From assembly GCA_038217285.1 (NCBI GenBank), contig JBBQPO010000020.1:1-37924 (forward strand): 37,924 nucleotides of DNA, written 5' to 3'. Made by a program: the position numbers. The DNA is from Chthonomonadales bacterium (GTDB lineage: Bacteria > Armatimonadota > Chthonomonadetes > Chthonomonadales > Chthonomonadaceae). Shown here piece after piece: positions 21,001 through 37,924 of this stretch (position 1 is the stretch's first letter; every line of letters starts with the position of its first letter).

Positions 21001-24000
21001 ATCCGTCCATAACGTGAAGCGCTCGGGCGTGCGCAGATGCACCCGCTCCCAGAGCAAGTCTTGCTTCTTGAAACGAAAACCATGTTCGATATAGTAGCGG
21101 CGCGCATAGGTCGCAGAAACCTCTTCCAACGGCGGGCATTCCTCTCCGCAGAAGAGGAACCAACTCACCCGAGGATCGCGCTTGTTGTCCTTTGCGCCAT
21201 GGCGAGTTACGCGCAGCAGCGAAACCGTGATATGACGTGCCTCCTGGAAATGCAATCCGTCCCAACGGTCCACTTCCAGACGCTTCCCGCGGTCATCGGT
21301 GCCTTCCCAATGGGCATCGGCGTCGCCGTGGGTGGTCGGCTCGGCGCATCGAAAGACCGCTCCATCTTCGGGAGGACGGCCCGGCCCCGGCTTGTCCGGA
21401 CGCAGCGGCTTGGGTCGATAGAGCACCCGGTTCTTGGCGAGCCTGAGGAGGCGATCATAGGCAATATCGTAGGTTTTGAGAAGGAAGGCCACGTTGCCAT
21501 AGCCTCCATCTCCCAAAAAGAGCGGGCGCACGTCCAGCAAAGCAGTCAACTGTTTTATACTAACGGCGCATGAGAAACTGGCGATTACGCGCCCGGAATG
21601 AACAGCACGACTTCGTGATTTTGACGTGCCGTTAGTATAACTGATCGCCCATCGTTTCGACGGGTGTTTTCTCGCTTGGGATGCGCTCGACATCCAGGGT
21701 GTAGACCCAACTGCTCGCCTCCGTCGGCACGACCGCCACAAAGGAGAATTGCCAGCCAGGTCGGACAGGCTTGGCTCCTTCAGGCAGGTTGGACTGATGC
21801 ACATAAGTACAGTCGCGTGCCGTGGCGGACGCCGGTCTGGCAATGGAACTGGCATCTCCTGCGAGCACCAGTCGCGTTCCTGCAGTGGGCTTGGGTGCAT
21901 AGTTGACGCGGAGTTTGCGCAACTCTTCTCGGTCGATCGCTCCGTCTTTGCAGGCGGCATAGGCACTAGACCATTCCCTCACAAAGAAGGGGGAGAGCGT
22001 GAGTTCGACAAATGAGTGCGCGGCGGTATCGGTAAGCAGCGCATCATTTAGGTTCATGAGCGCGTCGCCTGCCCGCAAGAAGCACGCGTACATTTTGTTG
22101 CGGTAGTCGGAAAGTGTGCTATGCTTCATGGGGTATGTTCTCTCCTTAGACAAGAAGAACAATACCCGATGGGGCAGCTTCTCACAGTCATAAACGGCTA
22201 CGAGAGGTTGCCCTTTAGTCTAAACGTCAATTCTCTACAACCCTGGCTGAAATACATAGCACAGTACTGGAGCGGCCGGAATACGTCCCGGTCAACGACA
22301 TCAGCTACGCAGGCATTGTGGACATGCAAGCGTCCAAAGCTCGGCCCGCCTAAGTCGTCGTCGAAGAGGGCCAGAGTGGCATACGTTAATGCCGGGGATG
22401 CTGCCAACCGAAGCAGCTTTTCCTGTTCCTGGACGGAAAGCAGTTCCCCTGCCAAATTCGACAACCGTCCTGCATACGCTCCCATATATCCTCCAGCCGT
22501 GCACTCCACTGTGCCCTCGGACGCTTCCAAGTATTGACAGAAGGGCCGGAGGGAAGGTTTCGCCAATTCTCTTTCTCCTTCACGAATCCACCGCCCGTCC
22601 CTGCGCCAAAGTGTGTCCTCGTCCTCCGTCCTCCAAAGGCGGGTGCAAGAAGAGCTTCTGTCTGCGCGCGGTACGAATGCCGAGAGAAGGGGAGCATCCT
22701 TACCAAAGAGTGTTCTTTCGTGCCGGGGCAGTCCGGCAAATTGCTTCCCGTCGGCCTTCAAGCCAACACTTCAGTCGATGTCTCCCTCATTCAAATCGTA
22801 GTCCCCAGCAGGCGGGGCAGGCTTTTTACGCCGATCTTTCTAGCGTAGGAGAGCACAAATAACCCATGACTGCCTTCGCCCTGGAACTATACCAGGAACT
22901 CCACGGCGGCGCTCATCGTCAACGCCGTCACGCGCGCCTGTGCGCCGCCTGCTTGAACAGCTCTCCGATCGCCTTGTGAAACAGGAGCATGGCAACCCTA
23001 CCCACCGCCCGCATCAGCGCCGGGACATGAGCCAGACCTGACGCGGTTGCATCGCTGCACCTGCGTTCGCGTTCCTGTGCGCCCTCTCTATACTCCCCTC
23101 GAAGAGCGCCGCGCCCAGTTGCTTTCGGGCGCAGCATACCCGGCTCTTTTGAAAACGACAGCGACCACCGCCTGTCGGAGAGGAGATACGACCATGGTTC
23201 ACACCGTAAAGGGCATCACCCTGACTCCCGAGGAGCGCAGGCAGGCAGGATACGACAGGGAGAAAGCGTCAGCTCACGTCTGCTCCGTCACACTGCCGAA
23301 CGGCGTTTCCTGCAAGGTTTCCTACACCCGCACCAGCGCGCGCCTCCACGCCTTCGCGTTCGGCGACCCGATCCACCGTACCCAGTACGCCTACGAGGCG
23401 ATACCGGACGGCATCCCCGGCATAGAGACAAAGGCGGCGGAGCTGGCGGAAGTGCTGTTCCGGCAGGCACAGCAGCAGGAGCAGAAGGAGATGCGCCAGA
23501 AGGTTCCGGGCAGCCGCGCGGCCTACCGTGGCGACGGAGGCCTGCAGATAAGCGCCCGTCTTGCCGAACAGTTGGCCGGACGATACGCCCCCTGCGTGCG
23601 ATGTGCCAGCGGTACCCTGATTCGCATCGGCGGGACCTACGGCGTGCCGGACGGGGCGCTCAAGGAGATCGAGGGCGGTAGGCACAGCGCCATCCGCCTC
23701 GTCAACGGGCAGCGTCTCGTCGTCGGCATCTGCAACCGGGCGGCGCAGCGGTGGGAGGAGCCGACCTTCTTGAGCGTACCGCGTTTCGAGCAGGCCACAC
23801 CTACTTTGGGCGTGAGTGCCCCTGTCTGCGAGGCGGAGGACCCGGAAGACGACGGAGAAGAGCCCGGTCCTCCGGGAAACCAGGAAGGCGATCCGATCTG
23901 CGAAGGGGAAACGTGCAATGAATGAGCCAGTTCCTAGCCGCTACGACGTGCACCTGTCCCTGACCGGCCTGCCAGCAGGCGGAGCCGCGCTGGTGCAGGA

Positions 24001-36000: not shown

Positions 36001-37924
36001 GTGGCGGAGGGAACACGGTTCTACCTGCCGGTGCTGGTTGCGGTGACGACCGGCCTGCGGCGGGGCGAGGTGCTGGGGCTGCGCTGGGAAGACATCGACC
36101 TGGATGCCGGGATGCTGTCCGTCCGGCAGTCGCTCGGGCAGACGCGGCAGGGACCCCAGTTCAAGCCGCCCAAGACCGAAAAGAGCCGCCGGGGCGTGAG
36201 CCTTCCTGCCCTGACGACAGAGGCGCTCCGTCGCCATCGGGAGGAGCAGCAAAAGGAAAAGGTGTTGCTGGGAGATGCCTACCAGGACAAGGGCCTGGTC
36301 CTCGCCAACCCTATCGGGGAGGCCTGGACGCCGAACGCATTGACCAAAGGCTTCGGGTTCCTGCTGGCGAAGCACGACCTCCCGCGGGTCCGGTTCCATG
36401 ACCTGCGCCACACCCACGCTACCCAGTTGCTGCGGCAAAAGGTCCATCCGAAGGTCGTCAGCGAGCGTCTCGGCCACTCTACCGTCAACCTGACGCTGGA
36501 CACCTATTCCCACATCCTGCCGGGGATGCAGGAAGAAGCGGCCGAGGGGGTCGACAAGGCGCTTCGCCAGGCCTTGCAACGGAACACTCCTGAAGCAGGC
36601 ACCGGGGGCAAAGAAGGGAAGAAGAAATAACGTACCGTCTGACTTACGTTCAAACGGCAGTCCTGCCGAAAACAGCCATTCCGCCGCTAAACGAGTTCAA
36701 CTCGTTTAGCGGCTTTTCAAACCCGACGCTTTTCGAGGAAGGTTGCCCGTTGGCTACGCTCGTCGCTATCACAGCCCGGAAGATGGTCAGAAGTGGCGGC
36801 AAGCGACGAAACGCTCCTATTCTTACGGGCAGGGATATTCAGGATGCCCGGTCGGACATCCACACCGCGGGCACCACAGCGGACATGGCAGGCCTTCCCC
36901 GGTCCCGTACGCGGTCTGTTCGCAACCATCACAGGTCCACGTTCTGTTTGCGCTACTCACATCAGCAGGCCACGTTTCCCACGCCAGGTCTCCTGCCGCC
37001 AGATACTCTTTCGGGGTATGTTGCGATATGTATGCCAGAAAACGCGAAACATATTGGACCTGGCGGGGGCTGGGACCCAGGCCCGCCACGCCGTACAGTC
37101 CTTCCAGCGCCCTGTCGATGTCGCTGAGCGCTTGCGGCGGCGTTTGCCCCTCCGAATCCTCAGGATGCCGTATAGCGATCCAGACACGATAACATGCCAG
37201 GATCAATCCGGTGCGGCCCCGTCCGTGATGGCAGTGAACCGCAACGCTCGTCGTAACCCCTTGCTGCGTACGAAACGCGTGGATCAGCGCGCACAAGCGG
37301 GCGACAAACCTGATATGGTCGGGGGCGGGCACGTCGCAGTCATCGATGGGGAGATGGGCCAGACGTAGGCCTGATACGGCCTTGTAGTCCATCTTCGTCC
37401 CTTCTACCAGGGAAATGACGAGTCCTATCCCGGTTTGAGGCACGCGTTCCAGCGTCTCGGTTTCCGGATAAGCCATGCCCGCGAGTCCTCCTCGTGCAGG
37501 CGTTGGCGGGAGCATCCAGTAAAAATTAGGAAGTATTGCTGATGCCATGACTTTTACCTCGTGAATTTGATGCCTGAATCCAGGGTCACAGTCGCTAGAC
37601 CAGAAGACAAGGCAGCCAATATGAAACTCACTTAATTTACCTGTCCGGGAACAGGGTTTATTTCAATTCGTCGAACATGTTCTTCTGCTGTCGGCGTTTC
37701 TCGTACCGCATCAGGTGGCGCCTGCCCATTGATCCATGCTTATGGGGGTGGCAGGGGTAGACCCTGCGTTGTGGAGATCGACAGACTGCAAAATCGCGTT
37801 CAAAATGAACGGCGATTCCGTTTCAAAATGAACACTGATTCCGTTTGAATTTGAACACCGATTCCGTTTGAATTTGAACACCATCGGAAACCTCTTCTGA
37901 GCAGACTAGCGAGCAACGCGGGAT

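Follow-up and report, generated by a model that had tools for sequence, protein, structure and literature searches.

Organization of the Locus

The window analyzed here is a 37,924-nt stretch of contig C20, which belongs to a soil or sediment bacterium (Chthonomonadales, Armatimonadota). It bears a stand-alone MutS domain I gene among the following features:

16481..18620, no strand assigned: left block syntenic with C2:21965-23949, two minus-strand genes and an HTH_31 regulator (blastn, tblastn)
23047-23925 and 23816-24454, plus strand: two conserved genes with no assigned function
24480-24503, plus strand: terminator-like hairpin
24561-25106, plus strand: upstream operon gene, otherwise unannotated
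25461-26639, plus strand: upstream operon gene, DUF932-like / phrog_1362
26673-27002, plus strand: upstream operon gene, otherwise unannotated
26992-27429, plus strand: upstream operon gene, otherwise unannotated
27326-27937, plus strand: upstream operon gene, otherwise unannotated
28097-28525, plus strand: upstream operon gene, otherwise unannotated
28593..29063, plus strand: orphan partner gene (P0002), 156 aa, read from sequence; stop codon overlapping with the start of MutS_I (ATGA)
29060..29368, plus strand: stand-alone MutS domain I gene (P0001), 102 aa (Pfam, AF2, Foldseek, relatives, dN/dS)
29525..29553, plus strand: terminator-like hairpin, 11-13 bp stem then TTTTT, arms 100% complementary, 157 nt past the MutS_I stop
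29755..30411, plus strand: HTH_17 / excisionase-like DNA-binding protein, start uncertain (HTH_17 1.6e-06; TIGR01764 1.9e-04)
30416..32833, plus strand: TrwC-type relaxase fused to AAA_30 helicase, 805 aa (TrwC 3.9e-80; AAA_30 2.1e-56)
32847..34481, plus strand: type IV coupling protein, 544 aa (TrwB_AAD_bind 1.8e-54; TraG-D_C 4.2e-17)
34977..35360, plus strand: excisionase-family HTH protein (HTH_17 1.5e-14; TIGR01764 3e-13)
35389..36630, plus strand: tyrosine integrase, 413 aa, with arm-binding and SAM-like N-terminal domains (Phage_integrase 8.1e-22; Phage_int_SAM_3 5.1e-12; Arm-DNA-bind_4 9e-06)

P0001 is a real, selected gene product that consists of MutS domain I only. The long in-frame ORF of C20 matched Pfam MutS_I (PF01624) with 74.6 bits (E-value = 9.3e-21; gathering cut-off, 20.6 bits), and the match covers positions 3-92 of the 113 in the model. 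The whole-genome scan led to two matches only, at C20:29069-29344 (8.6e-21, 76.6 bits) and C2:37368-37625 (1.3e-19, 72.9 bits), and the two proteins are 78% identical. P0001 remains below the MutS equivalog cut-offs (TIGR01070, 76.1 vs 641.7 bits; NF003810, 88.8 vs 480 bits), and both profiles align it over positions 4-103 only. The Pfam scan, together with AF2 and Foldseek, bears out the one-domain genes that the initial annotation had described on both contigs. Its doubt about the start codon (120 or 102 aa) is settled in favor of 102 aa, because the Met at 29060 is shared by all 12 small relatives and the upstream in-frame extension was rejected (stop in C2, dN/dS of 1.4). The frame overlapping that extension, at 28593-29063, has a dN/dS of 0.27-0.31. 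The stop codon of the MutS_I gene is located at 29366-29368, followed by the terminator-like hairpin.

A conserved accessory operon, located 5' of the relaxase module, ends with the MutS_I gene. Orthologues of the upstream operon genes (24561..28525) were identified in C2, in locus L080 and in G002:C155, and this congener, G002, has a related module without the MutS_I/partner pair. P0002 has an orthologue directly 5' of MutS_I in C2 (77%) and in L080 (76%), and the two genes are adjacent in all three loci that hold upstream sequence. The ATGA overlap is found in C20 and C2 but not in L080, where the partner ends ~30 nt earlier. The P0002 family has 26 members, and P0002 itself matched no Pfam, PHROG or NCBIfam entry. 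Its AF2 model has a pLDDT of 84.6; no Foldseek match reached E<=0.001, and the top VIA Z (6.4) is within that tool's noise range.

Such pairing could mean that P0002 is the active part of a two-protein effector, with some anti-defence or regulatory activity, and MutS_I as its targeting or regulatory subunit, the two amounting to a split small polyvalent protein. Apart from the adjacency and the overlap, at least six contigs appear to carry both families, as judged from matching lengths of the longest contigs, and complex prediction gave a median ipSAE of 0.52 (runs 0.52, 0.18 and 0.59; partner pLDDT >=69; runs agreeing in >=60% of contacts), the best of three controls reaching 0.00. However, this score lies in the weak band and one of the three runs failed. 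In calibration, 18 of 157 solved pairs had scores <=0.60, and both mismatched pairs that passed (2/215) did so at <=0.60, so most passes of this kind are wrong, except where the pairing was already likely a priori. P0002 is moreover without recognizable family or fold, the overlap is absent from L080, and P0002 may also occur alone, as its family outnumbers that of MutS-I (26 vs 12-13). We regard a two-protein effector as unlikely.

Transfer and Integration Module

Relaxase, coupling protein, excisionase and integrase are all located within 7 kb, and the Pfam matches agree with their initial assignment to the C20 element. The order on the plus strand is operon, terminator, HTH, relaxase, and the HTH_17 protein at 29755..30411, just upstream of the relaxase, is possibly a relaxosome accessory protein. 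CagE_TrbE_VirB (PF03135) had no match in the assembly, and, judged by this family, the element appears to lack a VirB4-type mating-pore ATPase. By its relaxase, integrase and excisionase, the C20 element is an integrative mobilisable element of Chthonomonadales. Comparison of the right flank with the rest of the window for att-type repeats yielded only chance-like exact repeats of 12-13 nt, no tRNA genes were found in the window, and the contig ends in a dispersed repeat common to four other contig ends. Searching for oriT with an R388 nic motif gave three matches vs 2.1 expected, no better than chance; the term "leading region" would apply here by gene order.

Synteny study with C2 showed eight module proteins at 34-84% identity plus three further to the left (tblastn), with blastn blocks 72-88% identical. 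This confirms the synteny initially described (nine gene pairs at 59-85%). As it extends over 16481-18620, the element reaches left of 23077, and this position, previously taken as the element start, is not its left border. The C2 copy had also been considered decayed and devoid of transfer genes; on the contrary, transfer genes of another type, one coupling-protein-like (TraG-D_C/TrwB-like, 612 aa) and one Replic_Relax (386 aa), are located ~8-11 kb downstream, behind a defence island.

Relatives, Selection and Origin

Among the 16 small candidates retrieved from 5.8e9 proteins, all of which had been counted as relatives, 12 qualified at E<=0.001 (67-86% identity). One further small relative in locus L081 brings the family to 13 sequences. 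Start, stop region, length and a family-specific C-terminal tail are common to the 12 relatives. The dN/dS between the C20 and C2 genes is 0.174 (dS 0.689), and it ranges from 0.17 to 0.35 in all six pairs among four DNA copies (dS 0.5-0.8), in line with the purifying selection claimed for the two copies; the family being tiny, these conservation statistics rest on close relatives, whose dS values indicate that they are not redundant copies of one recent element. None of 400 other genomes of the phylum has a small-family member, as the reported rarity had implied. One MutS_I match was detected in 35 of 40 related genomes, always in a long or contig-cut frame and never as a small protein. All four loci with flanks have a mobile context, namely C20 (TrwC type), C2 and L081 (Replic_Relax type) and L080 (ImmA/HTH module). 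These data support that the MutS_I gene is confined to mobile-element contexts and accessory in nature.

The same data bear on whether the gene is a non-functional remnant, a 5' mutS fragment picked up or truncated by insertion of an element. An Acinetobacter indicus plasmid has an unannotated ORF of 134 aa that covers MutS residues ~1-110 beside IS66, ImmA and an integrase, and many short metagenome MutS_I proteins are contig-cut pieces, as this explanation would have it. It is opposed by purifying selection in six of six pairs, by the common start and stop region with an own C-terminal tail, by an identity of only 54% to any full-length MutS, by the monophyly of the family on a long stem branch, and by the location of the gene in an operon, coupled to its upstream gene, in elements with different relaxases. 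A remnant is very improbable and close to refuted.

Polyvalent proteins of conjugative elements and phages carry a MutS-I module, often together with ArdC-N (in about 80% of cases), that is proposed to act on entering DNA, and Iyer et al. (2017; PMC5512222) describe them as the only place of MutS-I outside MutS. The paper search of the initial annotation, given as negative, had missed that work. We were able to recover such proteins among the representatives, with DarA_C and three MutS_I domains (P0015) or with DUF285, four MutS_I domains and ArdcN (P0021, P0025). No fused close relative of P0001 occurred among the best 150 of 9981 matches in 1.84e9 representatives, and ArdC-N (PF08401) had no match at E<=0.01 in the whole assembly (95% complete), a point against the parallel with polyvalent proteins. 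The best full-length match of P0001 is a Chthonomonadales MutS with 54% identity, the value initially given. Per-domain scores were 89-98 bits for Chthonomonadales MutS vs 18-64 for polyvalent MutS-I domains. In a tree of 106 columns, built with a short ("quick") search, the small family is monophyletic (SH-aLRT 100) and branches off, on a long stem, outside the main group of polyvalent domains; its grouping with Chthonomonadales MutS was not rejected (p-AU 0.709), though this tree does not fix its place among canonical MutS. The domain may have been captured from a Chthonomonadales-type mutS, apart from most polyvalent MutS-I of Firmicutes/Bacteroidetes, and would then have diverged on its long branch, keeping the wedge (Phe27-X-Glu29) and the core while losing ~7 positive charges.

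Concerning the host, neither a full-length MutS_I or MutS1-type MutS nor a DNA_mis_repair domain was found in the assembly, where MutS2-Smr and a membrane MutS-like paralogue are the only MutS-related proteins. The small domain might thus substitute for lost mutS and mutL, or be tolerated because of their loss. However, the 3' end of mutL (62 codons; 95% identity to congener G002) is located at the very end of contig C8, where the gene is cut by the assembly (459 contigs, 95% complete); the missing mutS is therefore probably an assembly gap and not a shown absence. mutS occurs in three of the four congeners and in 35 of the 40 relatives, and a lone domain I cannot replace the MutS ATPase clamp. 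The link to an absent host mutS, which the initial annotation had considered, is weakened accordingly and seems extremely doubtful.

Fold, Wedge Residues and Charge

The AF2 model of P0001, built from 12 sequences, has a pLDDT of ~90 over residues 1-82. Its top Foldseek matches are domain I of Taq and E. coli MutS (TMq 0.68-0.75); 1nne_B, 1ewq and 5x9w align over 82-83 columns with an rmsd of 1.4-2.1 A and a probability of 1.00. The reference structures of domain I are 1EWQ (Taq MutS) and 1E3M (E. coli MutS). P0001 aligns to E. coli MutS residues 12-112, and G25-D26-F27-F28-E29 of the small family corresponds to the GDFYE of that protein. Phe-X-Glu is the mismatch wedge, whose role is known from MutS-DNA structures. 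Its context is kept in both copies, as first annotated, and GDFFEAY is invariant in all 12 small relatives; residues R23, G25, D26, F27, E29, R49, P58 and H60 are invariant in the family. The mean net charge is -4.0 in the small family vs +3.4 in Chthonomonadales MutS domain I, about seven positive charges being lost with the fold core retained. Four canonical near-invariant positions are changed (D34T, Y65R, R68Q, A77I) and the last strand has lost basic residues. The acidic charge, the replaced residues and the lost basic ones speak against the isolated domain being a strong DNA binder. Mismatch binding by domain I of MutS takes place within a dimeric clamp, and on its own the domain may bind weakly.

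The altered charge also fits a shift from DNA to protein binding, in which the free domain imitates the N-terminal domain of host MutS, binds a partner or docking surface (the MutS connector domain, the beta-clamp or MutL may be considered) and poisons mismatch repair (MMR), together with its anti-recombination effect, in the recipient or host. MMR acts against homeologous recombination, and MutS would therefore hinder module exchange between the two related elements of this genome, which are 72-88% identical; the nearest relatives of the domain, moreover, are the MutS proteins of the host's own lineage (54%). Still, no partner of an isolated MutS domain I is known, base contact explains better than protein contact why Phe27 and Glu29 are strictly invariant, and it is not evident why an element that integrates through a tyrosine recombinase would need to block MMR. 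Protein mimicry, a sharpened version of the interference with host MMR that the initial annotation proposed, appears to us a rather unlikely explanation. Of the initial interpretation, the data support the gene itself, its purifying selection, its mobile contexts and its intact wedge; interference with host MMR is its conjectural part.

Proposed Role

Taken as a whole, we tentatively favor, at somewhat less than even chances, the view that the selected MutS_I gene, of probable Chthonomonadales origin, encodes an establishment-stage, mismatch-recognizing factor. The protein would be a single-domain counterpart of the polyvalent MutS-I module, encoded next to the relaxase module, and would recognize bases that are unpaired or mismatched in DNA of the element itself, either transferred or newly replicated. 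It would shield or mark such sites, including from host MutS, and P0002 may act together with it. The stronger claim, that the protein is a decoy or inhibitor of MutS-dependent MMR which transiently lifts the barrier to homeologous recombination and raises mutation, is quite improbable; it would act by occupying mismatches or a docking surface of host MutS upon entry or induction, and related elements, such as those of C20 and C2, could then exchange modules.

The importance of locating such one-domain genes on mobile elements stems from the fact that MutS-I outside MutS was previously known only inside giant multi-domain polyvalent proteins. There, its role is hard to isolate and, to our knowledge, no experiment has addressed it. 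The free, well-folding 102-residue version, with intact Phe-X-Glu, under purifying selection and beside a relaxase module, is the simplest test object, and raises the questions of whether DNA with mismatches or unpaired bases is bound by a lone domain I, with or without its small partner, and whether mutation and homeologous recombination rates change. If it interferes with MMR, that system would join restriction, CRISPR and SOS among the host systems disarmed by transferable elements; as a decoy or inhibitor, it would provide a minimal tool to switch MMR off, and no conjugative or mobilisable element would have been known before to encode a dedicated anti-MMR protein. Should it bind nothing but DNA of the element itself, it would clarify the role of MutS-I in polyvalent proteins. 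Being rare and limited to a single bacterial order, the family has little ecological weight.

Comparison with Known Systems

Like polyvalent MutS-I, P0001 is a domain I outside MutS, probably of cellular MutS origin, on a conjugally transferring element. In contrast, it is a free, one-domain protein of 102 aa instead of part of a 2-15-domain polypeptide, it occurs in Armatimonadota and not in Firmicutes/Bacteroidetes, and its family is nearer to Chthonomonadales MutS than to the main polyvalent clade. With bacterial MutS (MutS1; TIGR01070) it shares the domain I fold, Phe-X-Glu and most core invariants, but lacks domains II-V and hence clamp, ATPase and dimerisation; it also differs by a shorter loop after Arg49, its acidic charge, four changed near-invariant positions and an own C-terminal tail. 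Integrative mobilisable elements combine a relaxase, a coupling protein and integrase/excisionase without a mating-pair apparatus; the C20 element resembles them by its co-oriented block of TrwC relaxase-helicase, coupling protein, excisionase and tyrosine integrase, although its borders and att sites were not found in the search for repeats and tRNA genes. Finally, anti-defence genes of the leading region of conjugative plasmids are co-oriented relative to oriT (Samuel et al., 2024; PMC11541004), a main text in which "MutS" and "mismatch" do not occur. As in that region, small co-oriented accessory genes are located near the relaxase module of C20, in an operon of otherwise unknown proteins, although the element is integrative and the similarity is one of gene order. 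By this analogy, the MutS_I gene, nearest to the relaxase module, would fit the place where establishment or anti-defence genes would be expected.

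The MutS domain I gene and its product

The plus strand of the window encodes at 29060-29368 a protein of 102 aa (P0001), in which nothing but MutS domain I can be recognised (Pfam PF01624, 74.6 bits for the long ORF); the two genomic copies, this one on contig C20 and a second on contig C2 of the same genome, score 76.6 and 72.9 bits. The start codon, which the initial annotation had left uncertain between products of 120 and 102 aa, is settled at 29060, because the 12 small relatives found in 5.8e9 proteins (95-107 aa) all share this Met, the in-frame extension upstream (from 28640) carries a stop codon in the C2 copy and has a dN/dS of 1.4, and the overlapping frame at 28593-29063 encodes a conserved protein (dN/dS 0.27-0.31). 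Longer starts, at 29006 or as a 242-aa ORF from 28640, were rejected owing to the C2 stop and the dN/dS of the extension. Purifying selection on the domain, given initially as dN/dS 0.17 and dS 0.69, was reproduced between the C20 and C2 copies (0.174 and 0.689), and dN/dS ranged from 0.17 to 0.35 in all six pairs of the four MutS-I DNA copies. With these values and a start common to 12 relatives, it is very improbable that the gene is a dead fragment. Among the sequencing runs listed with the stretch there was none of RNA; one DNA run has it and is probably the source sample.

An AlphaFold2 model based on the 12-sequence alignment gave high confidence over residues 1-82 (pLDDT about 90) and low confidence in the tail. 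Foldseek matched it with domain I of Taq, E. coli and Neisseria-type MutS structures (TMq 0.68-0.75, rmsd 1.4-2.1 A, about 82 residues), and a profile search of PDB sequences aligned P0001 with residues 12-112 of E. coli MutS. In 12/12 small relatives the Phe-X-Glu wedge (F27, E29) is unchanged, and so is the GDFFEAYG around it, in agreement with the earlier claim that this context is kept. Compared with 69 canonical domain I sequences, the small family keeps R23, G25, D26, F27, E29, A35, L46, T47, R49, P58, H60, G73, Q81 and E83-D84-P85, while four near-invariant positions are replaced (D34T, Y65R, R68Q, A77I). The loop after R49 is four residues shorter than in Chthonomonadales MutS, and a family-specific tail stands where canonical domain I has its basic last strand. 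Net charge averages -4.0 (from -9 to +1) in the small family vs. +3.4 in the Chthonomonadales domains, +0.7 in other Armatimonadota and +2.4 in other full-length MutS. The wedge is thus retained and much of the positive surface lost, a combination that cuts both ways between a DNA-binding and a protein-binding role. Interference with host mismatch repair (MMR) by mimicry, close to what was proposed initially, is kept as a live rival of rather low probability.

Genomic context and element borders

Within its co-oriented operon the MutS-I gene comes last, and transfer and integration genes follow the operon:

24561-28525, plus strand: operon gene blocks, with one DUF932-like protein (phrog_1362, 2.4e-40) and all the rest without a family
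28593-29063, plus strand: orphan 156-aa gene (P0002), its TGA overlapping the MutS-I ATG
29525-29553, plus strand: perfect 11-bp-arm hairpin with T-run, closing the operon
After the hairpin, plus strand, in order: HTH_17 protein, TrwC relaxase-helicase (3.9e-80) and coupling protein (1.8e-54), all by Pfam
Then, plus strand: excisionase (1.5e-14) and tyrosine integrase (8.1e-22), by Pfam

The relaxase, coupling protein, excisionase and integrase attributed to this element were thereby all found again, on the plus strand. The assembly gave no match to the VirB4-type ATPase PF03135, the one family tested, which fits a mobilisable rather than a self-transmissible element. Another TrwC relaxase domain (4.0e-83) is found on the short contig C446 (493-1359, minus strand), and therefore a third related element may exist in the genome.

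Synteny with C2 extends over window 16481-18620, so the element starts to the left of 23077, the limit assigned to it initially. The window holds no tRNA and, as possible borders, only 12-13-nt repeats with no convincing direct repeats among them. The contig ends in a 138-nt repeat which also ends four other contigs; it occupies 37787-37924, is 100% identical to stretches in C315, C287, C88 and C70 (beginning at base 2 in C70), and has weaker copies in other genera; this dispersed repeat appears to break the assembly. A search for oriT with an R388 nic motif returned 3 matches against 2.1 expected, and no sigma-70-like promoter was found within window 22000-31000.

Further mobile-element cargo is located at 5315-10760, namely a YdjM protein (5.2e-21), an Mrr_cat restriction endonuclease (5e-19), two HTH_3 regulators and a large serine recombinase of 569 aa (Resolvase 2.8e-18); the entire C20 contig may be one or several elements. 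Between two blocks syntenic with C2, an unusual 483-aa fusion (18849-20300, plus strand) joins a YhaM-like OB-fold and HD 3'-5' exonuclease with a LexA/UmuD-type S24 peptidase domain (NF010007 2.2e-38, HD 7.9e-17, S24 self-cleaving peptidase 4.4e-27). In the low-GC stretch left of the module, the conserved gene block ending in P0002 and P0001, short sequences at 21553-21646, 20717-20838 and 22108-22231 are multi-copy in related genomes (75-95% identity), often at contig ends, and look like MITEs or IS ends.

Related loci and the partner protein

Flanking sequence was available for four loci, C2, L080 and L081 beside the window. C2 carries the same module at 34-84% protein identity (partner 77%, MutS-I 78%), interrupted by an MmeI-family restriction-modification gene, and followed downstream by a STAND NTPase, a GGDEF-HORMA-AAA operon, a coupling-protein-like gene and a Replic_Relax relaxase. 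The syntenic relationship described for C2 is sound; its description as a decayed copy lacking transfer genes is not, since the last two genes make it a different element with transfer genes of its own. The interrupting enzyme (C2:26013-28868, L160:8013-10868) is of type IIL, has 951 aa and separates blocks of the module that adjoin each other in the window. The C2 element also holds a CBASS-like operon (C2:41763-45503, L161:4763-8503) with a GGDEF-domain protein (5e-19) in the place expected for the CD-NTase, after which come a weak match to bacterial HORMA (31.2 bits, under the cut-off of 35.6), a 133-aa protein without assignment, an AAA ATPase and a 205-aa protein without assignment; it adjoins the STAND NTPase, which has 1032 aa and TPR repeats.

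At L081 the MutS-I gene is followed by DUF7694, HTH, YdjM and Replic_Relax genes, and at L080 the order is an ImmA/HTH pair, the module, the partner, MutS-I and then chromosomal-looking genes. A congener (G002) has a related module without partner and MutS-I. From these loci it follows that partner and MutS-I form an accessory cassette at the 3' end of a module common to elements with different relaxases. Just left of the module in L080, a metagenome relative, genes for ThiF-like, JAB and DUF7665 proteins and one without assignment (L080:3-3982, minus strand) adjoin the ImmA/HTH pair (HTH_3 and ImmA/IrrE of M78 type); together they resemble a cassette of defence type with a regulator of the element.

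The P0002 family comprises 26 members, all without annotation; searches of Pfam, PHROG and NCBIfam gave no family and the Atlas no usable match. Its model is confident (pLDDT 84.6); Foldseek returned nothing at E<=0.001, and the best VIA wide match (Z 6.4, ribosomal L38e-like chains) lies inside the tool's stated noise. Complex prediction for P0002 with P0001 gave a median ipSAE of 0.52 (runs 0.52, 0.18, 0.59) vs. 0.00 for the best control; by the tool's own caution, a pass of 0.60 or less is wrong more often than it is right if the pairing was not already probable, and the support for an association is weak. A two-protein effector is a second live rival, to which we assign about one chance in five.

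Distribution and origin

The small MutS-I family is rare. It comprises 12 proteins in 5.8e9, two of them from this genome, with one more in L081. In GTDB, at one genome per species, there was no close relative, and the best match was full-length Chthonomonadales MutS at 54%, the value noted initially for a full-length MutS. No member occurred in 400 other genomes of the phylum, among viral contigs (best match 40%) or in plasmids and phages (matches below 60%). Exactly one MutS_I match was present in 35/40 relatives, the frame in each case either having the length of a full MutS or being cut by a contig end, in line with the pattern given initially for 300 other genomes of the phylum. Three 'Bacteriophage sp.' records were discarded as relatives, as they contain full-length MutS (876-898 aa).

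Five further small proteins with MutS_I only (P0029, P0036, P0123, P0135 and P0140; 94-111 aa) have their own C-terminal ends, lie on contigs of 15-153 kb, are unrelated to the Chthonomonadales family and may be further independent stand-alone MutS-I genes, a hint that free MutS-I may recur elsewhere. Phage searches with P0123 and P0029 returned the same 'Bacteriophage sp.' set. On the Acinetobacter indicus plasmid pXG01-X3 (NZ_CP045136.1, L173:3923-4327), a 134-aa ORF that the gene table of the plasmid does not list corresponds to about the first 110 residues of a MutS. An alpha/beta hydrolase and an ImmA/IrrE gene flank this ORF, IS66 and an integrase are near, and it looks like a carried mutS 5' fragment.

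The family profile gave 9981 matches at E<=0.001 in 1.84e9 representatives, and a Pfam scan covered 11 of the best 150. Eight of the 11 were atypical, with 2-4 MutS_I repeats and/or DarA_C, DUF285 or ArdcN, or with one internal MutS_I (a 1925-aa protein); the other three were pieces of ordinary MutS. The multi-domain matches belong to the polyvalent proteins described by Iyer et al. (2017), which rank high because their repeat scores sum. Per domain they reach 18-64 bits with the family profile vs. 89-98 for Chthonomonadales MutS. In a quick tree of 141 domain sequences (106 columns), the small family forms a single clade (SH-aLRT 100) whose stem is long (1.39 changes per column); it falls outside the main polyvalent clade (support 98), and the tree does not fix its place among canonical MutS. 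When the set was cut to 90 rows, the best tree joining the family with the Chthonomonadales clade exceeded the free quick tree in likelihood (+10.8) and was not rejected (p-AU 0.709). Descent from the polyvalent domains is unsupported by these scores and clades. The best reading is that a Chthonomonadales-type mutS was the probable source, captured and then diverging fast, in an event probably separate from that behind most Firmicutes and Bacteroidetes polyvalent domains.

Host mismatch repair

The assembly (459 contigs, 95% complete) contains no full-length MutS1 and no DNA_mis_repair domain; the MutS-related proteins present are MutS2-Smr (802 aa) and a MutS-like protein that is membrane-anchored and lacks domain I. 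With the MutL of the congener as query, tblastn recovered the C-terminal 62 residues, 95% identical, right where contig C8 ends (51846-52031 of 52,032 bases), and the remainder of mutL had no match in the assembly. The MMR genes therefore fall in assembly gaps: the failure to find mutS, reported initially, is confirmed for this assembly, and its loss by the host is not established. A host without MMR is unsupported, and a link between the stand-alone domain and a MutS-less host is most unlikely in view of the mutL end.

Possible function and comparison with known systems

With the corrections made here, the observation is real and reproducible. Tentatively, we favor a mechanism in which P0001 would recognise bases of the element's own DNA that are unpaired or mismatched; this would take place during establishment, and the P0002 partner may act with it.

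Our literature searches found no stand-alone MutS domain I; those under PF01624, MutS_I or MutS-I mostly led to MutSig cancer tools, and mobile elements were absent among the matches listed. The initial statement that a paper search was negative does not hold, since MutS-I outside MutS is already treated by Iyer et al. (2017; PMC5512222). In that paper, polyvalent proteins are called the sole instance of MutS-I outside MutS, their domain is derived from cellular MutS, about 80% co-occur with ArdC-N, and MutS-I is proposed to recognise brief single-stranded segments of the element shortly after its entry. A 2018 paper from this group makes the point again in a single sentence (PMC6222260), and the main text on leading-region anti-defence genes (Samuel et al., 2024; PMC11541004) mentions neither MutS nor mismatch. 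As in the polyvalent proteins of Iyer et al., MutS-I is used here by transferable elements; P0001 differs in being a single-domain protein from a new phylum, and is thus a new version of a known, still putative use of this domain.
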